From Candidatus Wolfebacteria bacterium GW2011_GWA1_44_24 (GTDB taxonomy: Bacteria > Patescibacteriota > Minisyncoccia > UBA6257 > UBA9933), in the NCBI GenBank assembly GCA_001001115.1, contig LCIO01000001.1, forward strand, positions 71,501-135,500: DNA of 64,000 nt, written 5' to 3'. Positions within the stretch are counted from its first letter, which is position 1. Every line of letters begins with the position of its first letter. A program made the position numbers and the translations under genes. A model generated the notes under the pieces. That model worked only from the letters and a program-made list of their open reading frames with translations, searched no databases and was not told the DNA's origin. Positions 24,001 to 44,985 of this stretch are shown here, in pieces.

Positions 24001-24307
24001 ACGCCTTTATACTACTATCAAAACTCCTCTTTATCAAAGAAAAACTTGTGGTTCGCACTATTGTTTGAAAAAACTCCCGTTTGGAAGTTTTGCGCTCGAA
24101 CCTGTGAAAAAGCCCACCAATAAAGAGAAAAGTGCCGCTTTTCGCGATATTCATCCTATTTGGCTCCACACCCTGAACGAAATCCGAACGCATTTTCGGG
24201 AAACCCCCGACGAATGAAGCCGCCCCGCCGCCGCTCGCTAACGCTCGCCAGCCAGCAAAAAAGTTTTCTCTGCATTTCTGATTTTGCACGCGCCGGATTT
24301 TTTCTTC

Positions 24308-24488
24308 TAAAAGGAAAAGAAAACTTTTTTGCTGGGTTCTGCTCTCAACGAGCAGGCGGCGGGGCTGGCCTCTTTTGTATTCGCTCGGACGACTCGGCAT
24401 TACTCCCGACGACTCGGCATTACTCCCCCCCCCCAACCCCCTCCTGCCGAGCCATCCTCGCTTCGGCAAAAGGATTTTTTGGCGGCGG
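24308..24488. repeat. left arm of a GC-rich inverted repeat pair (about 181 nt)
   Basis: It is about 95 percent identical to the reverse complement of 29168-29356. It contains a 20 nt tandem duplication (GACGACTCGGCATTACTCCC x2) and a C(10-11) homopolymer, and it is embedded in an otherwise AT-rich genome. Confidence 0.85.
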
Positions 24489-24512
24489 ATAGTGTCCTGT
24501 GGATAATTCCCC

Positions 24513-24540
24513 CTTGATTGAACTTATACGTTTTGTATAA
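24513..24540 (+). promoter_or_regulatory. sigma70-like promoter TTGATT-16-TATAAT facing into the cassette
   Basis: TTGATT at about 24513-18 and TATAAT at about 24535-40, immediately inside the left inverted repeat, reading toward the structured leader and the XRE-RT-MTase genes. Confidence 0.4.
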
Positions 24541-24544
24541 TACT

Positions 24545-25060
24545 AAGTAGGACGGTTGCAGTTTAAAAATCAATTCGCGCGAGATCGGTTATCACTTCGA
24601 AGATTCTAGATCATTCTCTGTTATTGAGAATATCTGACCTCTCCTGTTTTGACAAGGAGTGGACCTTGCCCCGACATGTATATACATGTGTGCCCTATGC
24701 TTCATGTAATCCTTGAGGGACAAGTTAAGTCAAGTTGCTTTAGGCGTTGAGCTTAATGCTTCACTTGCACAGGGACTGCCATAACCTCACGGTTACTGGT
24801 ATTACCGGAAGGTTTTTATCGAAAACTGATAACCGTGAGGAGTTGGTGTGTTCCGCGTAGTAAATTAAAGGTCAATTATTAACCGTCCCCTTTAACTAAA
24901 AACACATGGAGCAAACAATGAAACACCAAAATCCAATTGCTGAATTGTGCCTTCCGTATAAAGGGGCGATTATCATTTATGAAGTGGTTGAGGTGCTTAC
25001 GGATAATTTTACAAATTATCCGTATCCTCAAAGACCTTCTGCGGTAATCGCCCCTTAGTC
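24545..25060 (+). ncRNA. about 520 nt highly structured leader / candidate ncRNA upstream of the XRE-RT operon (possible retron-like msr/msd region)
   Basis: No long ORF. It has a perfect 16 nt palindrome ACATGTATATACATGT (24673-24688). A long hairpin has an 11 bp perfect stem CCTCACGGTTA / TAACCGTGAGG (24784-24839) enclosing a nested GTTTT-TATCG-AAAAC hairpin, plus several further stem-loops. It lies between the promoter and the XRE start. Confidence 0.3.
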
Positions 25061-25067
25061 GTTCTAT

Positions 25068-25394
25068 ATGTATACATTTCCTGATTTAATCAAAAAAATT
25101 AGAGACGAAGCTGGTTTAACTCAAGCCGAATTTGCAAAAGCACTCGGCGTATCTGCTGTGCTTATTGCAATGGTAGAAACTGGTCAAAAAGAAGTTTCAA
25201 AAAATTTGCTTATTAAAATTGCTGAATTATTAAATGTTCATCCTTCATCAATAACTCCGTTTCTGTTTATAGATAGAGAGAAATTCAGTAAAGACCCTTC
25301 AGCAATAGATAAAAAATTTATTGAATGGGGGGAGAAAATGCAAACGCACTTAATAAAAGATCGGGCGAAACTCCTCAAAAAATATGCAAACTAG
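25068..25394 (+). CDS. XRE-family HTH transcriptional regulator
   Basis: 108 aa with the HTH_3 motif LTQAEFAKALGVSAVLIAMVETGQKEVSKNLLIKIAELLNV. The start codon sits within the palindrome ATGTATACAT, and the 3' end overlaps the RT start by 11 nt. Confidence 0.7.
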   Translation: MYTFPDLIKKIRDEAGLTQAEFAKALGVSAVLIAMVETGQKEVSKNLLIKIAELLNVHPSSITPFLFIDREKFSKDPSAIDKKFIEWGEKMQTHLIKDRAKLLKKYAN

Positions 25395-26310
25395 TAGATA
25401 CCCAAAACTTTACATACGGAGCAAGAACGAACTGGCAAAACATTTAAGCCATAGTAAGTTTCCGAAAGAGGAGGCGTTGGCTTTAATAAACGACACTCTT
25501 AAAAACTTTAACAAATATTGGAAAGATAACGAATATAAATCAGAACCAGAAAAAGAAAAATTTGTCAGAAGTGCGAAGGGCACACCACTAGGGAGGCTTT
25601 TAGATAACATTAACAAGTCTGTTCTTGCCCCACATGATAAAATGCTCCCCGTTTTTATATTTGGCGGTGTGAAAAATATGAACCATGCGAAAGCGGCAAA
25701 GTATTTACTCGGGAGAAAGCGAAAACGAACCTCTCTAAAATTAGATATAGCTCGCTTCTTTGAACAAATAAGTGAAGAAAGAGTTTATCACTTCCTCCAT
25801 GACAAGTGCGCGTGTAGTAAAAGGGCCGCAAAATTACTTGCAGGTTTTTGTTGTGTACCTAAGGGGCACAAGGGATCCGGTTTTGAATATAAAACGATAG
25901 CTCGCGGATTTGCCACATCCTCACGTCTTGCCATCTGGTGCAATTTAGACACTTTTATCAGGCTGGATCGTCTTGTTCAAAAACGACTTAAAGGGAAAGA
26001 CGCTCGTATCGCTATTTATGTTGATGATATTGGAATAACTGCTAGCAGAGTATCAAAAGAAGAAATGAAAAAGTTATCTGACGAAATTACAAAGCTTCTA
26101 CTAAATGCAGACAGAAACCAAAGATTGCCGATAAATGAGAAAAAGACAAAAATATCTTCCCACGAGGAGGGTATAGAACATCTTGGCTTGCGGTTATACA
26201 GAAATAGATTGTCTGTTGGCGCAAAAACAAAATCAAAAATAGATAGGGCAAGGAATAAAAGTGAACGCAAGCCACTGATTAGATACAAGCATTATGTTGA
26301 GAAAATCTGA
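25384..26310 (+). CDS. reverse transcriptase, retron-like (308 aa)
   Basis: RT motifs LKLDIARFFEQI (motif 2, compare Ec86 LNIDLEDFFPSL), TIARGFATSSRLAIWCNL (motif 4), AIYVDDIGITA (YxDD motif 5), LPINEKKTKI (motif 6, compare Ec86 LVINSKKTCI) and EHLGLRL (motif 7 position). Its size fits retron RTs. Confidence 0.8.
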   Translation: MQTSRYPKLYIRSKNELAKHLSHSKFPKEEALALINDTLKNFNKYWKDNEYKSEPEKEKFVRSAKGTPLGRLLDNINKSVLAPHDKMLPVFIFGGVKNMNHAKAAKYLLGRKRKRTSLKLDIARFFEQISEERVYHFLHDKCACSKRAAKLLAGFCCVPKGHKGSGFEYKTIARGFATSSRLAIWCNLDTFIRLDRLVQKRLKGKDARIAIYVDDIGITASRVSKEEMKKLSDEITKLLLNADRNQRLPINEKKTKISSHEEGIEHLGLRLYRNRLSVGAKTKSKIDRARNKSERKPLIRYKHYVEKI

Positions 26311-26318
26311 TTGCTTGT

Positions 26319-27956
26319 ATGGAAAACTTTGTGTATACTAAAGTTAGCGAGAAAATTATGACCCCCGGTTACGAAAACGATTTAGAGAACGAATATTCAA
26401 AAACTGTCGACCTAGAGCATAGGCGTGCTTTTGGGCAATTCTTTACCCCCTTTAAAATTGCAAAGTTTATGTCGGAGTGGGTTTTAGATAGTGAAAAACA
26501 GGAAATGGAGGTTTTAGATCCAGCCGCGGGCTTTGGGATTTTCCCTCGCGTAATGTCTTCCTTTAATAAGCGAAAAAAAATTAACTTTGACCTCTGGGAG
26601 ATAGACGAAAACATCGCAAAAAAACTAAAAGATGTTATACAAGAAATTAAAATGGAGGCGGTGATACATCAAGCAGATTTTCTAAAAAATGGCTGGGACA
26701 AAAAATATGACGGTATTATTGCAAATCCGCCATATTTCAAACACCACTACATAAATGAAAAAGAGAAAGTTTTTCAGGAAATTTGTCTGCGAACATACTT
26801 TAGATTTAGTATTCAAACTAATATTTACTGCTGGTTTTTAATTAAAGCTATAAATTTACTTGATAAAGGGGGGAGGTTAGCATTTATTGTGCCAAGTGAA
26901 TTTTTTAATGCGAACTATGGTGAAAAAGTTAAAGAGTATCTAAAACAATGTGGTGTTGTCCTTCATTTTATCAGCGTTAATTTTGAGGAAAATGTTTTTG
27001 ATAATGCACTGACTACATCAGTAATTATTCTTGCCGAGAAAAGTCCACAGAAGCATGAAAGTATAAATTTTTACACAGTGCATAATGTGAAAGAACTCGT
27101 TTCTGTAAAAGATTTTCTCAACAAACACCCAAAAAAGACCTTCAAGATTGCTGACCTAAATCCTAAAACAAAATGGAGAAATTATTTTAATGGCGATAAA
27201 GATATATTCTCGAAAGAACTTGTCTCACTTTCGACATTCGGCAAATTTTCTAGGGGCATAGCAACGGGGGCAAATCATTATTTCACACTTTCCTTACCAG
27301 AAGTTGAGGAGCATAAAATATCAAAAAAATGCCTGCGCCCATGTATCACAAAAGCCGTGCACGCGAAAGATATTTACTTTAGTGACGAGCATTTTGATAA
27401 ACTCAGGGAACAAGAAAAGAAAGTTTATTTATTTGATGGGGAAAAATCACAAGAACAAAGTTGTAAAAACTATATTGCACTTGGGGAAAAACAGGGTGTC
27501 AGTCAAAAATATCTTACAAAAAATCGAGATCCGTGGTATGCGCTAGAAAAAAGAGATGTTGCCCCGATTTGGGTAACGGTTTTTGGGAGAAGTGGTTTAA
27601 AATTTGTATGGAACGATTCTTCCTGTATTAACCTAACTTGTTTTCATGCTTTTTATCCTACCGAATTAGGAAAAAACTACCTAGATATATTATTTATTTA
27701 TCTGTATTCAAATACGGCCCAAAAATTATTTGACAGAGAAAAAAGAGAATATGGCGGGGGGCTTGGAAAATTTGAGCCAAACGATCTTAACAAAGCTTTT
27801 GTTGTCGATTTTAGATTGCTCGACAAGAAACAAATCTCTATTTTAGCGAACCTCCAAAGAGATTTTCTCAAATCAGAAAAAAACGAAAGAGAACAATTTT
27901 TGAAAAAAGCTGATGATATTTTTAAACCTCTTGCTCAATCAGTTTTTTCAAAATAG
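26319..27956 (+). CDS. N6-adenine DNA methyltransferase, gamma class (M.TaqI/Eco57I-like) with C-terminal target-recognition domain
   Basis: Motif X FGQFFTP, motif I VLDPAAGFGIF, motif IV IIANPPYF (NPPY), then a ~300 aa variable domain. It starts 8 nt after the RT stop. Confidence 0.85.
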   Translation: MENFVYTKVSEKIMTPGYENDLENEYSKTVDLEHRRAFGQFFTPFKIAKFMSEWVLDSEKQEMEVLDPAAGFGIFPRVMSSFNKRKKINFDLWEIDENIAKKLKDVIQEIKMEAVIHQADFLKNGWDKKYDGIIANPPYFKHHYINEKEKVFQEICLRTYFRFSIQTNIYCWFLIKAINLLDKGGRLAFIVPSEFFNANYGEKVKEYLKQCGVVLHFISVNFEENVFDNALTTSVIILAEKSPQKHESINFYTVHNVKELVSVKDFLNKHPKKTFKIADLNPKTKWRNYFNGDKDIFSKELVSLSTFGKFSRGIATGANHYFTLSLPEVEEHKISKKCLRPCITKAVHAKDIYFSDEHFDKLREQEKKVYLFDGEKSQEQSCKNYIALGEKQGVSQKYLTKNRDPWYALEKRDVAPIWVTVFGRSGLKFVWNDSSCINLTCFHAFYPTELGKNYLDILFIYLYSNTAQKLFDREKREYGGGLGKFEPNDLNKAFVVDFRLLDKKQISILANLQRDFLKSEKNEREQFLKKADDIFKPLAQSVFSK

Positions 27957-28818
27957 CTTCATCAAGTTTTGCCTTGCCACCCTCAAAGCTTACGTGATGA
28001 AGAAGCCTCCCTCCGGCAAGCTCTTTTCTTATACCCAAAAGATTCGGCTCGCCTATATTTTCGCTTATTAAATGACCATTGTTTAAATACATGTGAATGG
28101 TCTCCTTGTACTGATTTTTAGGATTCTTTTCAATAACAAAAGCTAGTGCGTCATTTTTTAAACCGACAACCTTTTTATTTTTGATACCCTTTTCTGAAAT
28201 ATCTGTGTCTCTCAATAATGACAAAATTTCGCTGAACGATATCACATAGATTGCATCAAAAAATACTTGAACGTAAAAATGCGGAACATTAAAAGTATCA
28301 ATCCATTTTAGTACGATCAAAAGATCCTCCACTTTTGGAGTGAAACTCAAAAACGGACGTTCTTTTTTGGCGATAAATTTTTTTGTTAGATATGCGCTAG
28401 ATCGCACTTCAAATCCCGCTGTCGCTTGCGGAACAATTTTTGCAAGTTCTCCATGAGATAATTTACTGATATCGTCACCCCATTCTTTTTTGTAAATTTT
28501 GGGGTCAAATAGTAAAACATCAGGCCTCTTACCGATTGCGTCCAGCTCATCTTGATACTGATTATAAAAGTCTTTGAAGTCGGGGTCTCCAGCAATAATC
28601 TTGTCTGATTTCCCATATCTAACGGGGACTAAATCAAGGTTAGATGCTTTAAGGGAACGAAAGAAAAGCATCTCCGCCCAATCTCCTTGTTCGTTGTGTG
28701 TAAGAAAATCAGAAAATGCTTGCGTGGGTGGTGTTCCTCTCTTGCGTTTCGCTCCCAGATTAACAATATTTGGCGAAATATCCTTCGCAATTTTATGTAT
28801 TTTGTCCTTATAACTCAT
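27922..28818 (-). CDS. putative type II restriction endonuclease (cognate of the methyltransferase)
   Basis: 298 aa with no strong family match. A possible PD...(D/E)xK-like core is PDVLLFD ... GFEVRSS. It is translationally coupled (ATGA overlap) to the upstream C-protein gene, and its 3' end overlaps the convergent MTase by 35 nt. Confidence 0.45.
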   Translation of the reverse strand: MSYKDKIHKIAKDISPNIVNLGAKRKRGTPPTQAFSDFLTHNEQGDWAEMLFFRSLKASNLDLVPVRYGKSDKIIAGDPDFKDFYNQYQDELDAIGKRPDVLLFDPKIYKKEWGDDISKLSHGELAKIVPQATAGFEVRSSAYLTKKFIAKKERPFLSFTPKVEDLLIVLKWIDTFNVPHFYVQVFFDAIYVISFSEILSLLRDTDISEKGIKNKKVVGLKNDALAFVIEKNPKNQYKETIHMYLNNGHLISENIGEPNLLGIRKELAGGRLLHHVSFEGGKAKLDEAILKKLIEQEV

Positions 28819-29054
28819 ATTCCTTTGAAAAAATCAGAGATGCTGATTTTTAGCGCTTTAGAAACTTTTTCGATATTTTCAAGCGTTATGTTCTTTTCTG
28901 CTCGTTCAATCATGCCGATATATGTCCGGTGAACACCGGCGCGTGAGGCTAATTCTTCCTGTGATAAACCTAACCTCGCCCGCTCCTCGCGGACTTTTTT
29001 ACCAAATTTGATAAGGATTTCTCTTTTCATAGTTGATAACTGTAGTATATCCAC
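28815..29054 (-). CDS. controller (C) protein, XRE-family HTH
   Basis: 79 aa; LSQEELASRAGVHRTYIGMIERAEKNITLENIEKVSKAL HTH. It sits immediately upstream of, and overlaps, the putative REase gene, the classic C-R arrangement. Confidence 0.65.
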   Translation of the reverse strand: MDILQLSTMKREILIKFGKKVREERARLGLSQEELASRAGVHRTYIGMIERAEKNITLENIEKVSKALKISISDFFKGI

Positions 29055-29167
29055 TTGCTAACTTTGGTGCTACATACTATAGTTAGCGTATGGATTTATT
29101 GATTTTAGGGAGTTCCTACAACTTGCCCGCGCACGGGAGCGGTGGGGCAAGGGCAAGAATAAATAAT

Positions 29168-29356
29168 TCCGCCGCCAAAAAATCCTTTTGCCGAAGCGAG
29201 GACGGCTCGGCAGGAGGGGGTTGGGGGGGAGTAATGCCGAGTCGTCCGAGCGAATACAAAAGAGGCCAGCCCCGCCGCCTGCTCGTTGAGAGCAGAACCC
29301 AGCAAAAAAGTTTTCTTTTCCGCAGAACCCAGCAAAAAAGTTTTCTTTTCCTTTTT
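29168..29356. repeat. right arm of the GC-rich inverted repeat pair (about 189 nt)
   Basis: Reverse-complement match to 24308-24488. It carries a 30 nt tandem duplication (GCAGAACCCAGCAAAAAAGTTTTCTTTTCC x2) and G-runs (GGGGGTTGGGGGGGA). Confidence 0.85.
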
Positions 29357-29424
29357 CCTTCGACTTTGCTTAGGATGGTGAATTTGCCGAACCACAAGTT
29401 TTTCTTTGGCGGCAAATTCCATTT

Positions 29425-30174
29425 CTAAAGATTAAACAACAACTTGATTATTAACGCTATAACAACCACTATGAGTAACCCTCTAAGCCACTTATCACCA
29501 AACTTTAGTGCAGTGTGTGCGCCGATATACGAGCCCACCATTGAAGTAATGGCCAATGGCACCGCAAGAGAAAAATCGATGTTGTCTCTTCTTACAAAAA
29601 CAAAAAGTGCCGCAATAAGCATAATGGCGGTAACAAAAACAGAATCAGCAATTCCTTGCATTAAGTCTCTACCAAGCAACAAGACAAATAAAAATATCAA
29701 AAATGTTGCGACCCCTACCGAAAAGAACCCGCCGTATATACCCAAGATGAAACATAAAATACCTGCAATAATAAAATCTTTTCTATTGAGTTTTTTGTTT
29801 TCAATCTCAAGGCCAGCAGAAGGTTTTTTGAAAATCAAAAAGATTAAGCCGAAAAAGAAAATAGCAACAATTTTAGATAAAATCTCTTTGTTAATATCAA
29901 GGACAAGATTAGCACCGATAAAAGCACCTATGAGCGAGATTATGGAGAGAGGTAAAACAATTCTAAAATTTATTTTATGGTTCTTCCAATATTTGAAGAC
30001 CGCAACGACATTTATCAACCACCCCGAAAGAATATTGGTACCAATGGCTAATGTGGGTGTTAGCCCAAGAAAAAGTAGAGCTGGCAACGTAATGAGTGCT
30101 CCGGCACCAACTTGTGCCCCTACAAATCCCCCCACCAAACCGGCAAGAGATATAAAAATTAAACTAAAATCCAT
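29425..30174 (-). CDS. TauE/SafE (DUF81) family sulfite/anion exporter
   Basis: 249 aa, 7-8 TM segments; N-terminal LAGLVGGFVGAQVGAGALITLPALLFLGL typical of the family. Confidence 0.7.
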   Translation of the reverse strand: MDFSLIFISLAGLVGGFVGAQVGAGALITLPALLFLGLTPTLAIGTNILSGWLINVVAVFKYWKNHKINFRIVLPLSIISLIGAFIGANLVLDINKEILSKIVAIFFFGLIFLIFKKPSAGLEIENKKLNRKDFIIAGILCFILGIYGGFFSVGVATFLIFLFVLLLGRDLMQGIADSVFVTAIMLIAALFVFVRRDNIDFSLAVPLAITSMVGSYIGAHTALKFGDKWLRGLLIVVVIALIIKLLFNL

Positions 30175-30306
30175 TTATGAAAAATTTTCTTTTACTTTTA
30201 ATTTTATTAAAAACGAAACCGCCAATTGATTTTTTCGCCCAAAATTCCGTTCAATTTGGTCGCCGAGCGAAGCGAGGCGACCTACAAATCGTTGACTTTT
30301 CCTTAC

Positions 30307-39743: not shown

Positions 39744-40967
39744 TCAGTGCCCGTGTCCGCTTTCTATCTCTCCTTTAAAAATTTTCGGGTCCTCTTCTCC
39801 TCTTACATGAAGCGTTCCCCAAGCGCCGCGGTCAAGCCGCGAGAGCGCGTGGTCAACAAGTATGTAGTTTCCCGGATAATCAAGGTGTAATTCAACCGCT
39901 GACGCGCCTCCGGCCGGAACAAGCGTTGTCTGGACGCTCTGCGCCGGAGAACTTACCAAATCCCCCTCGCGAAAAACTCTGTCAAATATCTCGCCGATAA
40001 CATGAAAACTGGAAATTAAATTAACGCCTCCATTGCCGACGTAAATTCGGATTGTTTCGCCGACTTTAGCGTTCAAATTATTCGCCAACGCTCCTGTGCG
40101 GCCGTTAAAAACAATGTATTGCGGTTTTCCGTCAAGCATCGCTTGAGCGTCAAAAAGCTGCAATCCTTCACGACCAATTGCGCCAGCGCTATAAAATTCT
40201 CCCTGCGCTACATAAAATTCACGGTCAACTTTTTCCATTCCTTCTTTCGGTTCCACAAGAATCAGGCCATACATGCCGTGCGTCATATGATTCGCGGCAT
40301 TGGGATGAGCGCAATGATATATGAAAATACCGGGATTAAGCGCTTTAAAAATTATTGTTTTGCTTTCGCCGGGCGCGACTATGGTTGCCGCGGCGCCTCC
40401 GCCCGGACCAGTCACCGCATGAAGGTCTATTGAATGGTGGTGTAAACTGGTCGGGTCATTATGGAGCGTCAGCATCACCGTGTCGCCCTCGCGCACGCGT
40501 AAAAACGGCCCCGGCACCTTGCCGTCAAATGTCCAATAGTTAAAAGTAACGCCGGGTGCCATTTCCGCTACAACCTCTTTGGCGGTTATATTTATTTCCA
40601 CATTCGCAGGTTCTTTGCGGGCAATAGGCAAAGGAATATCAGCCGGATTCCGCGCAATGTCCGCTACCCGTTCAAAACGTCTAAAATTTTTAAAAAACTC
40701 CCATACATTTTTGAAAGGAATCGCCGGTCCGTCTGACGGTCCGTATGTTTTTAGAAAAAACGGGTATTCAAAAGCGCGTGGCAATCCGTTCGGAGCGTAA
40801 AAATAAAATGAAACTCCGATAAATACAATAATCAGCGCGACTATTATTTTCCGGGAGTGGAGACGCCTTAAAACCAAATACAAAAAAAGCGCGGCAAATA
40901 TATACGCAATAAAAAGCCCTGTTGATTGAACAAGATATTGCCAAAGGTATGTTATTAATTCAAACAT
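39744..40967 (-). CDS. nirK: copper-containing nitrite reductase (NirK-type, two-domain cupredoxin) with N-terminal membrane anchor
   Basis: Type 1/type 2 Cu ligand motifs HNDPTSLHHHSIDLHAVTGPGGGA and YHCAHPNAANHMTHGMYG (Cys...His...Met), then a second cupredoxin domain and a C-terminal His-rich tail. Confidence 0.7.
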   Translation of the reverse strand: MFELITYLWQYLVQSTGLFIAYIFAALFLYLVLRRLHSRKIIVALIIVFIGVSFYFYAPNGLPRAFEYPFFLKTYGPSDGPAIPFKNVWEFFKNFRRFERVADIARNPADIPLPIARKEPANVEINITAKEVVAEMAPGVTFNYWTFDGKVPGPFLRVREGDTVMLTLHNDPTSLHHHSIDLHAVTGPGGGAAATIVAPGESKTIIFKALNPGIFIYHCAHPNAANHMTHGMYGLILVEPKEGMEKVDREFYVAQGEFYSAGAIGREGLQLFDAQAMLDGKPQYIVFNGRTGALANNLNAKVGETIRIYVGNGGVNLISSFHVIGEIFDRVFREGDLVSSPAQSVQTTLVPAGGASAVELHLDYPGNYILVDHALSRLDRGAWGTLHVRGEEDPKIFKGEIESGHGH

Positions 40968-41078
40968 ATATGATAATCAACTCCGCCGCGCGCATTAACA
41001 ATTTCAAATTTTTAATTAAGTTAATTATAACTCAAACCAGTGAATTTTTCAATTTAAGATTGTTGGAAAATTCACTGG

Positions 41079-41120
41079 CTTTGGCGGAATACAAATTCGA
41101 GCGTGTAAAGCACGCACAAA
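41079..41120. repeat. 42 nt perfect direct repeat, copy 1
   Basis: CTTTGGCGGAATACAAATTCGAGCGTGTAAAGCACGCACAAA is identical to 43553-43594. It contains the hairpin GCGTG-TAAAG-CACGC. Confidence 0.8.
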
Positions 41121-41130
41121 ATAATTATTT

Positions 41131-41169
41131 CAAAAAATAATGGGTCGGAACGAGTAATCGTTCCGACCC
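41131..41169 (-). terminator. rho-independent terminator of the GC-rich lipoprotein gene
   Basis: 11 bp stem GGGTCGGAACG / CGTTCCGACCC followed on the minus strand by a U-run. Confidence 0.55.
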
Positions 41170-41180
41170 ATGGCGAATCT

Positions 41181-41573
41181 CTACTGCACTTCAACGACTT
41201 CTGGAAAGAAATTGTGCGACTCAAGCTTGCCGTCCTTCGTGATCGTGATTCGCAGAAATTCTGGAAGAATTTGCCGCTCGACGATGATCTCACGCGGCGC
41301 GACTTCTATGACCTCCGTAATGTCCTGCGGAACCTTGTATTGACTACGATCTCCTTCGCCGCGAGCGGAAAATGTGATCTCGTAGGTGCCCCTCTCGTAG
41401 AACCGGAAAATCAAATAGTCATTAGTGCCACGTACACTACTCTGCCGTTTGTATTCGGCGATGACAGCGCCATGGAAGTATGAGCGCCTGCTCATAAAAA
41501 ACTCCTCATAACAGCCCGCTAAAAACGCGACACCAATAAGGAGTCCTATAAACAGCGATAGTTTCCGACTCAT
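41181..41573 (-). CDS. hypothetical lipoprotein (GC-rich gene)
   Basis: Lipobox LAGC after a signal peptide. Its GC content is markedly higher than that of the neighbouring core genes. Confidence 0.45.
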   Translation of the reverse strand: MSRKLSLFIGLLIGVAFLAGCYEEFFMSRRSYFHGAVIAEYKRQSSVRGTNDYLIFRFYERGTYEITFSARGEGDRSQYKVPQDITEVIEVAPREIIVERQILPEFLRITITKDGKLESHNFFPEVVEVQ

Positions 41574-41838
41574 TGCTACCTCCTTTTTTAGGTTAGGAAT
41601 GTACTTTCACAATCTAAGCACCATGCTTAAATTTGATTTAAAGATAGCATATTACACAATAAAAGTCAAGAAGCGGCAAGTCGCCGCAAGGGTTCCTTTG
41701 TCCACTTGTAAAATCCTAATTGGCGGTGTGAATCGGTCTAGAACCTTGCTTATGTAAGTATTGCAAGGTTTTCTTGGGGTCTTTTCCGGGGTACAATTTG
41801 ATGGAGGTCGGTCAGGTTCTCTATTCAAACCGGTTGAT

Positions 41839-43389
41839 TTATTTACACTCCGCCGGCGGCAAAGTTGAAGAACTAAAAGGATATTTGGGATTTTTTTCGA
41901 TTGCAAAACCGTTGGCGTCCCATCCTATGAATTTGGAACAATCAATGCGACCCCCCGCTGGTCTGGCGACGGGCGCATCCTTGCAACAACAATTTGAATC
42001 GTTCTGCCATCCCTTCGGAATCAAATAATCATAACAGGCTTGTTTATTCTGAATACACAAGAAATCTCTGGACGTATCCGAACACGCTTGTTGCGAAGTC
42101 GCCGGGGAATATCTGTCCGTTCCGCATATTACTTTGCATTGAGCTTCTTTTGGATCGACTGGCGCCGGTGGCGCTCCCGGCGGCTCGGGATCGGGTTTTG
42201 GAGATACAGACGGCGACTTTGATGAAGGTGAATCACCAATATAACGAGGCAGCGGCAAACAAGTAATAGGTATCAAAAAATCCCAGTACGTGGCTATACT
42301 ATCGTCGTATTGACCAACAAGAACCTTTTTTCCGTCAGGAGAGTCAATATACAAATTCTCCCGCCATTTATAGCTAAAGATGGCGTTCCATTTCATGTAT
42401 CCTATGCGGCCAAAGTCTTTTCCGTAATTCATTATGTCCAGTTTTCTTCCACCCTCCTTCTCGCATGTGAAGTATGGCGCATCGGTCCACATCAATTCGC
42501 CGGGCTTTATGATGAATTCTGCCGGCATGTCCTCCACGGTTGCCGGGGAAATAACCGGAAACTTCGTCGGCGCGGAGAATGTCCCTTGATTAACCATTAG
42601 ATCTTCTATCGCGCCCCGTTCTATTAAGGTTAGGCGCCGGGAAAGCGGGGCTGTCGGAGAACTGTCTTTTGCCTGCAGTTTAATGGCCCGAATTTCCATT
42701 ATGTGCTCAATGGTGGTTCTTGCTTTAAAGCCTGATCTGACAAAATAAGCCGGCTCTTCTTCACTGATTACCTCAACTTCTCCTATCGCGGCCGCAGTCT
42801 TGCCGGCGCCAAAAATTTCAAAAAGTACGCTGGGGTGAAATTCCGCGGCGTATACCGAAGAAAAACCGCTAATCGGAGCCTTCACGGTCATTTTGCCGCT
42901 TCCGAGGTCAACAACGCCCTTTTGGTTTTCAAGCGGTTTTAGCGAATCGGAATGTGCATGATAAAGCTGAACAAGACGAATGCCATTTCCTTTTCCGTCC
43001 GACATCGGCTCTTTTTTAACCCCCATTGAAACGGAAATAACGACGGGTTTTTTAAATTCGAGGCCGTCCGGTTCCAGGCGATACGCCGTTACTACTCCCT
43101 CAATTTCCTCCGGGCTTATTTTAATAATCGAGATGTCTCTCAAAGAAACACCTTTTGGGAGGGCATCCTTTGGAATTTCCAAAGAAGCCTCCCCATCGTC
43201 GGAAACAATAGTTTGCGTTTTTGGCTTTAAAATGAAAAATATGATTATCAAAATAACTGCGAGAAAAATGATAATGGCAATAAAAAATTTTTTTTCTTTA
43301 AGCCAATTTGCCATACAAGTTATTTTATCGTATTTTGCCGTAATAAGACAATAAGGACTCAGCGCCCGGTCTCTCAAATGAATGCTCAA
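41839..43389 (-). CDS. hypothetical membrane-anchored/secreted protein with a Cys-rich C-terminal domain and a Pro-rich linker
   Basis: 516 aa; TM near the N-terminus (FFIAIIIFLAVILIIIFFIL), a PKPDPEPPGAPPAPVDP linker, and more than 12 Cys in the last 90 aa. Confidence 0.35.
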   Translation of the reverse strand: MSIHLRDRALSPYCLITAKYDKITCMANWLKEKKFFIAIIIFLAVILIIIFFILKPKTQTIVSDDGEASLEIPKDALPKGVSLRDISIIKISPEEIEGVVTAYRLEPDGLEFKKPVVISVSMGVKKEPMSDGKGNGIRLVQLYHAHSDSLKPLENQKGVVDLGSGKMTVKAPISGFSSVYAAEFHPSVLFEIFGAGKTAAAIGEVEVISEEEPAYFVRSGFKARTTIEHIMEIRAIKLQAKDSSPTAPLSRRLTLIERGAIEDLMVNQGTFSAPTKFPVISPATVEDMPAEFIIKPGELMWTDAPYFTCEKEGGRKLDIMNYGKDFGRIGYMKWNAIFSYKWRENLYIDSPDGKKVLVGQYDDSIATYWDFLIPITCLPLPRYIGDSPSSKSPSVSPKPDPEPPGAPPAPVDPKEAQCKVICGTDRYSPATSQQACSDTSRDFLCIQNKQACYDYLIPKGWQNDSNCCCKDAPVARPAGGRIDCSKFIGWDANGFAIEKNPKYPFSSSTLPPAECK

Positions 43390-43552
43390 TCCTGCGGTGT
43401 GTATTTGAAAAAATCCGGAATGATTTTGCGCGCGATTGACTCGGCAGGCGGAATTCCCCCATACCCCCTTCTGCCCACCTCGCCTTGCCTGCCCGACCGA
43501 AATTCGTGAGTGAAAGCGGGAACCGGAGCGGAAAGGACAATTTCAAGTTTTT

Positions 43553-43594
43553 CTTTGGCGGAATACAAATTCGAGCGTGTAAAGCACGCACAAA
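43553..43594. repeat. 42 nt perfect direct repeat, copy 2
   Basis: Identical to 41079-41120. It lies about 80 nt downstream of the stop of the GC-rich gene at 43675-44361. Confidence 0.8.
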
Positions 43595-43674
43595 TAGTTC
43601 TTTCAAATTCAAAAAGAAAAGAGGCGGGAAGATTTCTCTTACCCGCCCCCGATGTCGCCCAGCATGAGTGTCGG

Positions 43675-44361
43675 CTATGCCGGAACTTTGACCCGTTGAG
43701 ACGCGAACACTTGCCGTAAGTCGCCGTAGGTTTTAACCTCCTTCGGGAACAGCACCCGCAGGTGGCAACCTCGGCACACGATCGCGTCGTGCGTACTGGT
43801 CGCCCTTCGGCGATCTATCCAGCAGTTGCAATGCATGTGCACGCCGACGCACGAACCGAGATCATTCTCGTCCCGCGTGTGCTTGACGAAATACTCGGAA
43901 CCGAACGCGAGTGTTCTCGGAGGGTACTCGCGTAAAAGGTCGCCTTCGAGTGTGAGCTGGATCGGCTCAAGCGGAACGCTTCGCTCGACCTCTTCAGCCA
44001 TCATCTCGATGAGCTTCTCGCGATCTTCGTTTTGTCGCGAAGAGCCGTAGACCGCGCGCTGAAGCGCACAGTCGAGCCAGCCCGTCGCGAAGTAGTTATC
44101 GCCGTCTTCCTCGCTCACCACCTTGAACGGACAGAGGCTGTTGATCGGGTACGTCTCGCCCGTGTTGCTGCCGTCCTGGTCACGGTAATGGCCGACGAGT
44201 TTCCCTGGTGCCACCTTTTTCGGATTGAAGCCAGCGGCGGAAACGGTGTCGAAGAGGACTTGCACCTCGTCTGCCGGAAGCGTTTTGACCTCGTCCCATC
44301 GCTTGTACTTCAGGGTGAGATCCACGAACCGCGTTGCTACGTCTGTCATTTTGCTCGGCAT
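43675..44361 (-). CDS. hypothetical protein, strongly GC-rich, with a C-terminal Cys/His cluster (HNH- or zinc-ribbon-like)
   Basis: 228 aa; C-terminal GVHMHCNCWIDRRRATSTHDAIVCRGCH. GC content is far above the window average, suggesting foreign origin. Confidence 0.3.
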   Translation of the reverse strand: MPSKMTDVATRFVDLTLKYKRWDEVKTLPADEVQVLFDTVSAAGFNPKKVAPGKLVGHYRDQDGSNTGETYPINSLCPFKVVSEEDGDNYFATGWLDCALQRAVYGSSRQNEDREKLIEMMAEEVERSVPLEPIQLTLEGDLLREYPPRTLAFGSEYFVKHTRDENDLGSCVGVHMHCNCWIDRRRATSTHDAIVCRGCHLRVLFPKEVKTYGDLRQVFASQRVKVPA

Positions 44362-44544
44362 TTTTGCCTCCTTTCTCTTTGGGTTTGGGAATGTGCTACT
44401 CAGCTAACAATCTAACATTATGTTTAATGAATTGTCAAACGAAAACAAAAACTCTTTCGAGTCTTTGTTTCTAAAAAATCAGAATGAAAAAATTCCTTTC
44501 GCCCTTACAAAATATGGTTCGAGCCAATGACTTCATTTCCCAAC

Positions 44545-44634
44545 TGGCGGAGGCGAGAGGATTCGAACCTCTGAGGCCGATTAAGGCCTATCCGCTTTCC
44601 AAGCGGACGCACTAGACCGCTATGCGACGCCTCC
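44545..44634 (-). tRNA. tRNA-Ser (anticodon GGA), long variable arm, CCA encoded
   Basis: Acceptor GGAGGCG/CGCCTCC, anticodon stem TCCGC/GCGGA with loop TTGGAAA, variable arm GGCCTTAATCGGCCTC, and T arm AGAGG-TTCGAAT-CCTCT. Confidence 0.85.
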
Positions 44635-44640
44635 TTATTT

Positions 44641-44985
44641 TTATGCCGCCGTATCCGACCGGTCGGAATTTTCTTCCCGTTCTTTGCTTTTTCTGTATCC
44701 TTTTAAAGCGATGATTTTATTTTTAAGCAAACCGGCGAGCGCGTAGCTTGATTCCGAAACGTCTTCGCCTTCTTTTCTTAGATTTTCCAGTTCTTCCGTT
44801 CTTTTATCGACGTCTTCCTCGGTCAAAATACCGCCGAAGAATTTACCGATTAAATCAGCGTCGGCGATTTCAATTTTTCCGCAATTTATTTCCTGCCAAT
44901 GGGGGTCATTGCCGGTTTTTCCGCGCAAATTATTGCACAAAAACTGCCCGCTGTTTAAATTTTCAAAATTGCTTTCAATCGCCAT
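44641..44985 (-). CDS. hypothetical protein
   Basis: 114 aa, acidic, no motif. Confidence 0.3.
   Translation of the reverse strand: MAIESNFENLNSGQFLCNNLRGKTGNDPHWQEINCGKIEIADADLIGKFFGGILTEEDVDKRTEELENLRKEGEDVSESSYALAGLLKNKIIALKGYRKSKEREENSDRSDTAA

Follow-up and report, generated by a model that had tools for sequence, protein, structure and literature searches.

We describe a stretch of about 3.5 kb within a 64-kb piece of Candidatus Wolfebacteria DNA (the window, meaning the whole piece at its full length) in which two GC-rich genes, one for a 228-aa protein and one for a 130-aa lipoprotein, lie behind a tRNA-Ser(GGA) gene and are each followed by a copy of the same 42-nt repeat (the 42-mer). 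On balance, we favor the reading that this stretch is a tRNA-anchored tandem array of small, horizontally acquired, self-contained cassettes with a common chassis, and that the 42-mer is the core of an att-like motif at the cassettes' 3' boundary. The comparisons below firmly establish how the cassettes are built, that they share flanks, that they have been transferred horizontally and that they are linked to tRNA genes. The feature is real and not ordinary.

The 42-mer (CTTTGGCGGAATACAAATTCGAGCGTGTAAAGCACGCACAAA) occurs in exactly two copies with 0 mismatches between them, as a preliminary description of the locus had reported. A third copy was absent from the window at up to 3 mismatches, and 0 matches were expected from shuffled sequence. 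All genes in the region are on the minus strand, and the order of transcription is tRNA-Ser, 228-aa gene, terminator, 42-mer copy 2, a 492-aa gene, the lipoprotein gene, terminator, 42-mer copy 1, nirK and an extracytoplasmic function (ECF) sigma factor gene (Table 1). The end of the tRNA-Ser(GGA) gene, which was confirmed to adjoin the region, is 183 nt upstream of the 228-aa gene. Each 42-mer lies just 3' of a GC-rich gene, as first described, at ~25 nt past the intrinsic terminator of that gene. Because the region is identical in 5 independent assemblies, the arrangement is not an assembly artefact; the window DNA was placed in LCAK01000003.1 (GCA_000996445.1, Candidatus Wolfebacteria, candidate phyla radiation (CPR)/Patescibacteria, groundwater).

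We assessed composition using GC in 300-nt segments and a table of GC at third codon positions (GC3) for the 68 open reading frames (ORFs) of the window (mean 0.429, standard deviation (sd) 0.075). GC reached 0.56-0.60 over positions 43600-44400, compared to a window mean near 0.41. The 228-aa gene (GC 0.584, GC3 0.729, z = 4.0) was the sole ORF above 2 sd among the 68, which bears out the GC richness claimed for it. The lipoprotein gene, which had also been called GC-enriched, was second highest of the 68 ORFs (GC 0.491, GC3 0.573), but at z = 1.9 it falls short of 2 sd. The 492/516-aa gene between them was native-like (GC3 0.447, z = 0.2). Because the composition of this gene is average, the 3.5-kb stretch is a mosaic and not a uniformly foreign block.

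To place the 228-aa cassette among its relatives, we compared the window with other loci and contigs, which carry L-numbers here. We observed 87% (L043) and 83% (L033) DNA identity over about 972 nt, from 44507 to 43536, with the non-coding flanks included. Homology upstream of the gene begins at 44507 in these two loci and at 44462-44397 in L009, L044 and L006. The homologues sit in unrelated gene neighborhoods, and the upstream hairpin, promoter, leader and terminator move along with them. In most loci whose 3' flank was inspected, the terminator apex AGA-GAAA-TCT is kept, and the stem varies yet stays complementary.

The protein search returned matches to the 228-aa protein at 91, 87 and 84% identity, with further loci at 87 and 86%; the best non-self match to HtpX was 75%. 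Across genomes, the 228-aa protein is 73-91% identical where housekeeping proteins are at 38-75%. In the comparison with L011, EPSP synthase is about 38% identical, the 228-aa protein 73-80% and the cassette DNA 82%, and a Berkelbacteria genome holds a copy of the protein that is 78% identical. In 18 of 23 loci, the gene had a GC content 0.03-0.17 higher than its flanks; in the other 5, gene and flanks were about equal. Because the 228-aa gene is far more conserved than housekeeping genes, we conclude that it has been transferred horizontally.

The family itself is specific to the CPR. All source-named members among the 230 homologues of the first search were Patescibacteria, and the 20 loci from genome collections were from Patescibacteria or from unclassified 'bacterium' metagenome-assembled genomes. 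Neither the 228-aa nor the 130-aa protein had a match in Pfam, NCBIfam, PHROGs or PADLOC. The AlphaFold (AF2) model of the 228-aa protein was confident (predicted local distance difference test score 89.8), with no fold match in PDB or BFVD and no match to a recombinase fold. A C-terminal HxxC..CxxC zinc ribbon was the sole recognizable part of the protein.

We next consider the association with tRNA genes, for which we used 65 non-redundant loci, 51 of them with at least 800 nt of upstream sequence. A tRNA gene was present within 800 nt upstream in 26 of these 51 loci, compared to 9.4% expected from the tRNA density of the remaining flanks (P = 5e-14, binomial). The linked tRNA is almost always on the same strand as the 228-aa homologue. 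Ser (four anticodons) and Leu tRNAs were the most frequent, and Val, Asp, Trp, Phe, Lys, Arg, Gly and Thr tRNAs were also found. Because the tRNAs are so varied, the linkage is to tRNA 3' flanks in general and not to tRNA-Ser specifically.

The lipoprotein gene has 8 homologues only. That in L114, a contig whose flanks are 57% GC, encodes a protein 67% identical to the window protein, and its DNA is 78% identical over 601 nt (41669 to 41079), with homology beginning at 41669. L114 carries the same promoter, the same leader (TAGATTGTGAAAGTACATTCCnAACC..AGGAGG) and the same terminator, followed by a homologue of the 42-mer and AAAACCTTAAAATTGTCAGTG. Both cassettes of the window have promoters of the TTGAC(A/T)-N17-TTAGAT type and terminators of their own, which are kept across genomes, and share a CA-rich leader (TAGATTGT..ACATTCCnAACC..AGGAGG). 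In the window and all fetched loci, this leader precedes only 228-aa and lipoprotein homologues. The shared leader and the homology with L114 therefore indicate that the two GC-rich genes have 5' and 3' non-coding modules in common.

The 42-mer reads as the invariant core of a longer, interrupted motif at the 3' end of the cassettes. On the minus strand, the aligned copies run TATTT(T)GTGCGTGC, 3-6 variable nt and GCTCGAATTTGTATTCCGCCA/AAG (slashes mark junctions), then AAAAAYTTGAAATTGTYA.. and a GC-rich segment ..CGGCGGAGC..; the second part can also be given as AAAAAYTTGAAATTGT.. after AAG. In copy 2 this second part is contiguous (43536-43552), and in copy 1 a 65-nt insert with a hairpin (41037-41078) comes before it, so that it runs from 41013 to 40981. 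Homologous motifs were found 3' of the 228-aa terminators in L043, L033, L011/L048, L052, L013, L014, L018/L059, L056 and L103. The layout of copy 1 is the same as that 3' of the L014 228-aa homologue (L014 5751-5863 against 41098-40981, 71% over 118 nt). A shorter motif (GAATTTGCCGCCAAAGAAAAACTTG..) comes straight after the stop codons of two unrelated genes, the window TauE gene (29395-29429, after tRNA-Asn) and a 144-aa gene in L040. A hidden Markov model (HMM) of the right motif matched 3' of 228-aa homologues, of the lipoprotein gene (window and L114), of the window TauE gene and of the L040 144-aa gene; the exception was a weaker match inside an ORF at L046 674-702.

The window thus holds 2 full copies and 1 partial copy of the motif in 64 kb. 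An exact 22-mer from the 42-mer core had 0 matches in each of three collections (GTDB representative genomes, JGI metagenome contigs and IMG/VR). Either the element is rare or it has diverged too far to be caught by an exact search, and its relatives surfaced only via the neighboring proteins.

Several candidate identities of the 42-mer were rejected. Its hairpin (GCGTG-CTTTA-CACGC), which the preliminary description had pointed out, is present but weak (5 bp, centroid -5.7 kcal/mol, z about -2.1), and as a conserved structure it failed: six homologous copies showed no compensatory change and the middle pair was broken in 3 of the 6. A terminator role does not fit, as there is no T-run after the hairpin and separate terminators lie ~25 nt upstream of each copy. 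The copies differ by 1- and 4-nt indels, which rejects a coding remnant (EFAAKEKLEIV..).

The end of the motif resembles a tRNA 3' end joined to the start of a conserved 'trailer' that often follows real tRNA genes. The cassette motif ends ..TTCCGCCA/AAGAAAAACTT-GAAATTGTCA, with ..TTCCGCCA/AAG at the junction, and real tRNA junctions read ..CCGCCA/GnnnGGAAATTGYCAAA. A clearer candidate mimic lies before the lipoprotein promoter, at 41711-41745. ARAGORN and Rfam called no tRNA at 41711-41772; the pseudo-end at 41721-45 and the real tRNA have an equal GGTTC-to-CCA length of 25 nt and are identical at 15 of these 25 positions. The pattern CCGCCANNNNGGAWWT had 2 matches in 64 kb, at the true tRNA-Ser end and at 41711-26, compared to 0.07 expected. 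In L114, the motif region ends ..ACACCGCCA/GTTGGGAAAT, and CCGCCANNNNGGAWWT follows the motif. Divergence or hairpin insertion sets in at exactly the position that follows CCGCCAA(A)G, as we observed for copy 1 of the window and for L011, L013, L014 and L103. These alignments suggest that the motif may be an att-like junction or a recombination hot spot, with CCGCCAAAG as the junction sequence under consideration.

The sequences beside the 42-mer copies bear on how the array was put together. The terminator-side spacers resemble each other at about 65%, and the AAAAAYTTGAAATTGTY blocks have 2 mismatches in 17 positions. When the 228-side arm of copy 2 is fused with the nirK-side arm of copy 1 ('attB'), the contiguous layout of L014 is rebuilt (71% over 118 nt); the other pairing, of the lipoprotein-side arm from copy 1 with the 492-side arm from copy 2 ('attP'), gives the simple layout of L033, L043 and L018. 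An identical core with swapped-arm layouts is what one would expect had a 2,474-bp segment recombined into the motif.

We propose the following mechanism. Its units are the 228-aa cassette, at about 44507-43494, and the lipoprotein cassette, at about 41669-40981, each of which comprises a sigma-70-type promoter, a leader, one ORF, an intrinsic terminator and the 3' motif. Such cassettes move with their flanks between distant CPR genomes and land preferentially just 3' of tRNA genes. The motif, as a putative mimic of a tRNA 3' end joined to the conserved trailer, may be a working or relic att-like site that stems from integration targeted to tRNA ends. The 2,474-bp segment (the 492-aa gene plus the lipoprotein cassette) probably entered behind the 228-aa cassette when two full motif copies recombined with each other. 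The event might have been site-specific, or the core might have served for homologous recombination or gene conversion; in both cases the outcome would be two perfectly identical 42-mers whose arms have diverged. No gene for the recombinase lies nearby, within 10 kb on either side.

Several results weigh against this proposal. We did not find the motif 3' of the homologues in L006, L009, L044 and L115 or of the L040 lipoprotein gene, and because it is absent there, it is not required for the presence of the gene. The 42-mer shares only ..TCCGCCA (7-8 nt) with the adjacent tRNA-Ser 3' end; because the overlap is this short, the repeat is not a duplicated tRNA segment. Rfam and ARAGORN gave no tRNA-like score at the 42-mer sites. 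As a diverged copy of the trailer, the 42-mer was not significant with the trailer HMM (E about 3), and we dropped the claim of homology; the mimicry of a tRNA end plus trailer is a resemblance of short motifs judged by eye and by one pattern test. About half of the 228-aa loci have no upstream tRNA. In a same-site comparison based on HtpX, the closest relatives were at most 75% identical, and L112 and L113 were not syntenic. Among the genes of the annotated 20.7 kb around the site, which reach 10 kb to either side, no integrase or recombinase Pfam domain was found, which extends the earlier remark that no integrase lies in the region. Finally, the restriction of the leader to two gene families fits co-regulation as well.

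Could the region be a single island? The preliminary description had proposed this, and a single ~3.5-kb island at tRNA-Ser, with the 42-mers as attL and attR and the integrase outside the window or lost, would account for tRNA adjacency, atypical composition and perfect direct repeats. Foreign origin and tRNA association stood up in our analysis; the unit and the role given to the repeats did not. The repeats bracket 41121-43552, which leaves out the most atypical gene, the 228-aa gene, and encloses the native-like 492-aa gene. Moreover, the 42-mer is no copy of the tRNA-Ser 3' end, the 10 kb on either side hold no integrase, and each 42-mer moves with its own gene in other genomes. The single-island model is largely contradicted, and we regard it as highly improbable. 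Integration sublocations in tRNA and tmRNA genes were reportedly described by Williams in 2002. Integrative islands targeted to tRNA genes include tandem arrays with repeated tRNA 3'-end fragments, and the locus is like them in having foreign-composition DNA 3' of a tRNA, tandem units separated by ..CCGCCA ends, and the most atypical unit nearest the tRNA. It differs in that its units are ~1 kb with a single cargo gene, in the missing integrase, in repeats that share 7-8 nt with the local tRNA 3' end where those of islands typically share 15 nt or more, and in that the same unit occurs beside many tRNAs (Ser, Leu, Val, Asp, Trp and others), as a sequence-specific tRNA integrase would not place it.

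The small single-gene units also recall integron cassettes and clusters of attC sites lacking integron integrases (CALINs), with the 42-mer region as an attC site: 'ORF plus 3' repeat' units stand in tandem in the same orientation, the repeat is near-identical between neighbors within the genome, and gene and repeat occur together in unrelated genomes. Inspection of the motif alignment and fold showed no attC core site and no long bulged hairpin. IntI is absent from the 20.7 kb around the site, neither an R''/L''-L'/R' palindrome nor a GTTRRRY core is present, there are two sites only, and the array is anchored at a tRNA and not at attI. Whereas integron cassettes are mostly promoterless, both cassettes here have predicted promoters along with their own leaders and terminators. 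An integron-type array therefore has hardly any probability in our assessment. Another candidate is a generic intergenic repeat, of the repetitive extragenic palindromic (REP), miniature inverted-repeat transposable element (MITE) or terminator type, that came to lie after two genes by chance. It would suit the small hairpin inside the 42-mer, the hairpin-type insertions beside it and the related piece within the 24-29 kb defense-island inverted repeats; like REPs, bacterial interspersed mosaic elements (BIMEs) and MITEs, the locus has short conserved non-coding hairpin sequences between convergent or tandem genes, with hairpin modules variably inserted. Unlike these, the motif is very low in copy number within the 64 kb (2 full and 1 partial, with no exact 22-mer match in the three collections), stands strictly at the 3' ends of particular mobile genes, and lacks a T-run, covariation, terminal inverted repeats and target-site duplications; we consider such a repeat improbable. 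The alternative that the preliminary description itself had offered, a cassette-associated recombination or terminator element, came close to the comparative data in its first half and failed in its second.

A further explanation is regulatory. The leader and the 3' motif could act in cis to control a small regulon made up of the 228-aa protein and the lipoprotein, for instance as operator, translational enhancer or 3' stability element. They would then be retained for their function, with the 42-mers kept identical by concerted evolution. Consistent with this, the leader occurs on just two gene families, leader and motif are kept in other genomes, the leader sits where an element of a 5' untranslated region would, between -10 element and Shine-Dalgarno sequence, and an ECF sigma factor gene is nearby. 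The motif, on the other hand, sits after a strong intrinsic terminator and also after unrelated genes (TauE and the 144-aa gene), is missing from many homologues and is broken up by variable hairpin insertions, and co-regulation leaves the tRNA adjacency, the GC3 anomaly and the non-syntenic spread unexplained. We therefore think co-regulation without mobility unlikely, with some chance left to it; the two are compatible and not mutually exclusive. The outcomes that would have told against the foreign origin first suggested were not seen: the 228-aa gene stands out in composition, the 42-mer is not widespread in the sequences searched, and synteny with the region is lacking in the other genomes compared.

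Table 1. Features of the cassette region in window coordinates; a slash marks a junction.
Feature	Position	Strand	Remarks
tRNA-Ser(GGA)	44545-44634	-	ARAGORN; Rfam RF00005, 56.3 bits
tRNA-Ser 3' end ..CTCCGCCA, then GTTGGGAAAT.. (shortened 'trailer')	44535-44550	-	position is that of the CCGCCANNNNGGAWWT match
5' non-coding part of 228-aa cassette	44362-44507	-	hairpin, promoter, leader
Insulating hairpin with GAAA loop, 228-aa cassette	about 44443-44470	-	read from sequence
228-aa promoter	-35 TTGACA 44433-44438; -10 TTAGAT 44410-44415	-	predicted, sigma-70-type; 17-nt spacer
228-aa leader TAGATTGT..ACATTCCCAAACC..AGGAGG	44383-44414	-	
228-aa GC-rich gene	43675-44361	-	CPR-specific family; C-terminal zinc ribbon
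228-aa intrinsic terminator GGCGGGTAAGAGAAATCTTCCCGCC + T-run	43623-43647	-	predicted
42-mer copy 2	43553-43594	-	minus strand reads TTTGTGCGTGCTTTACACGCTCGAATTTGTATTCCGCCA/AAG; candidate core of cassette 3' boundary motif
Distal 3' region of 228-aa cassette	43393-43552	-	compared with L033, L014, L018, L114
AAAAACTTGAAATTGTC	43536-43552	-	directly after 42-mer copy 2
Block in common with L011	43494-43535	-	
G-rich stretch	about 43430-43500	-	between 42-mer copy 2 and 492-aa gene
3' region end ..TTTTTTCAAATACACACCGCA	43393-43413	-	
492-aa membrane-anchored Cys-rich protein gene	41839-43317	-	between the two cassettes; native composition
Hairpin 3' of 492-aa gene	41740-41772	-	in 41711-41772 region
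Pseudo tRNA 3' end + trailer start GGTTCTAGACCGATTCACACCGCCA/ATTAGGATTT, also written GGTTCTAGACCGATTCACACCGCCA/ATTAGGATTTTAC	41711-41745	-	clearer putative mimic, before lipoprotein promoter
Lipoprotein cassette promoter + leader region	41574-41669	-	TTGACT at 41664-41669
Lipoprotein leader TAGATTGTGAAAGTACATTCCTAACC..AGGAGG	41591-41616	-	
130-aa lipoprotein gene	41181-41573	-	lipobox LAGC; GC3 0.573
Lipoprotein intrinsic terminator	41142-41169	-	kept in L114 and L115
42-mer copy 1	41079-41120	-	candidate 3' boundary motif core of lipoprotein cassette; homologous copy 3' of L114 lipoprotein homologue
Remainder of motif copy 1	40974-41078	-	
Optional inserted hairpin CCAGTGAATTTTCC..GAAAAATTCACTGG	41037-41078	-	then GAGTTATAATTAACT..
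AAAAATTTGAAATTGTTAATGCGCGCGGCGGAG	40981-41013	-	end part of motif copy 1

We also examined the genes and RNAs around the cassettes. The tRNA was the single Rfam match over 40800-44800. The 492-aa protein had no match in Pfam, PHROGs or PADLOC and two NCBIfam matches far below their cut-offs, over the N-terminal membrane anchor. Directly after the array lies the copper nitrite reductase gene nirK (40967-39744), whose product matched TIGR02376 above the cut-off (342 bits) and has an N-terminal extension of ~100 aa that looks hydrophobic in the translation, as judged by eye; the ECF sigma factor gene follows.

Some of the compared loci showed further detail. In L046, two 221-aa ORFs flank the 228-aa homologue. 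A short repeat (..CGTCCTCTACTCGGGTGCACCCAAA..) followed by a terminator-like hairpin lies upstream of 228-aa homologues at L046 about 790-860 and 2170-2240 and at L047 1-70, with no upstream tRNA there. At L009 4415-5756, two small unannotated ORFs (126 and 92 aa) separate tRNA-Ser(GCT) with its trailer from the 228-aa cassette, and they might represent additional cassettes. L116 and L117, contigs assembled from other samples, cover the end of the 492-aa gene plus the lipoprotein gene (window equivalent 41133-41970, minus strand) as a strain variant at 99% identity, and the two break off at one and the same base, 12 nt short of 42-mer copy 1. This shared endpoint weakly hints at an assembly-graph branch, that is, structural heterogeneity at the motif.

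The tRNA trailer is a conserved element of ~115 nt that runs CCA/G-n-n-n-GGAAAT(T)GYCAAA, a variable GC-rich hairpin and an end ..AAAAGAAAwTTTTTCAT. Copies were located at window 30177-30305 (minus strand, tRNA-Asn), L014 4709-4824, L043 2266-2380, L033 887-1001, L018 4773-4890, L063 177-287, L023 6845-6957 and L009 4514-4634. In other, unrelated CPR genomes it follows eight different tRNAs (including Leu, Ser, Asp, Val and Arg), always starting no more than a few nt from the tRNA end. Its hairpin varies yet stays paired, and the conserved blocks are GGAAATTGYCAAA, CTCGGCGAC, GGCGAAAAA and the AAAAGAAAwTTTTTCAT end. A search of the trailer against Rfam returned no family. The trailer might serve as a signal for processing, or it might be a small RNA or the end of a mobile element.

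Elsewhere in the window, a defense island of ~5.4 kb (24035-29408) is bracketed by perfect 21-nt inverted repeats (CAAAGAAAAACTTGTGGTTCG) at 24035-55 and 29388-408. Its arms are ~180 nt (24313-24489 and 29168-29321), and GC falls to 0.35. It carries a helix-turn-helix (HTH) gene with a reverse transcriptase of the retron type (PADLOC RT_VI, 1e-27), and it also encodes an Eco57I-like methyltransferase, a restriction enzyme of the AccI type and an HTH controller. The start of the outer repeat falls within the cassette 3' motif copy GAATTTGCCGC/CAAAGAAAAACTTG after TauE, behind tRNA-Asn. At 29292-29351, on the inner edge of the right arm, a 30-nt unit (GCAGAACCCAGCAAAAAAGTTTTCTTTTCC) is perfectly duplicated in tandem. 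By eye, the G-rich stretch GGGCAGAAGGGGGTATGGGGGAATTCCGCCTGCCGAGTC (43430-43500) of the cassette region looks like the G/C-rich core GGCAGGAGGGGGTTGGGGGGGAGTAATGCCGAGT of the arms; a multiple alignment did not align the two.

CPR bacteria (Patescibacteria) have tiny genomes, and horizontal gene flow among them is poorly understood. To our knowledge, few mobile elements have been recognized in this group, and searches of the literature for tRNA islands or attC cassettes of the CPR turned up no relevant work. A bolder extension of the cassette array, which we hold to be doubtful, is that it belongs to an undescribed CPR cassette system without a linked integrase. Self-expressing cassettes of ~1 kb, with the genes for the 228-aa zinc-ribbon protein, the lipoprotein and perhaps other products, would insert after tRNA 3' ends, and after the tRNA-end mimics of earlier cassettes, and so build arrays; the trailer would be the left landmark, the 42-mer motif a reusable attachment site, and the mobilizing factor either the ubiquitous 228-aa protein, with its novel fold, or a chromosomal Xer-type enzyme. 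Our analysis also flags two uncharacterized conserved elements, the 228-aa family (657 representative clusters at 50% identity) and the tRNA trailer. The cassette is a trackable unit of promoter, gene, terminator and motif, with DNA that is 78-87% identical in genomes that share only about 40-75% identity in their core proteins. If the motif is a working attachment site, it would represent a new way in which a major radiation of bacteria acquires genes.

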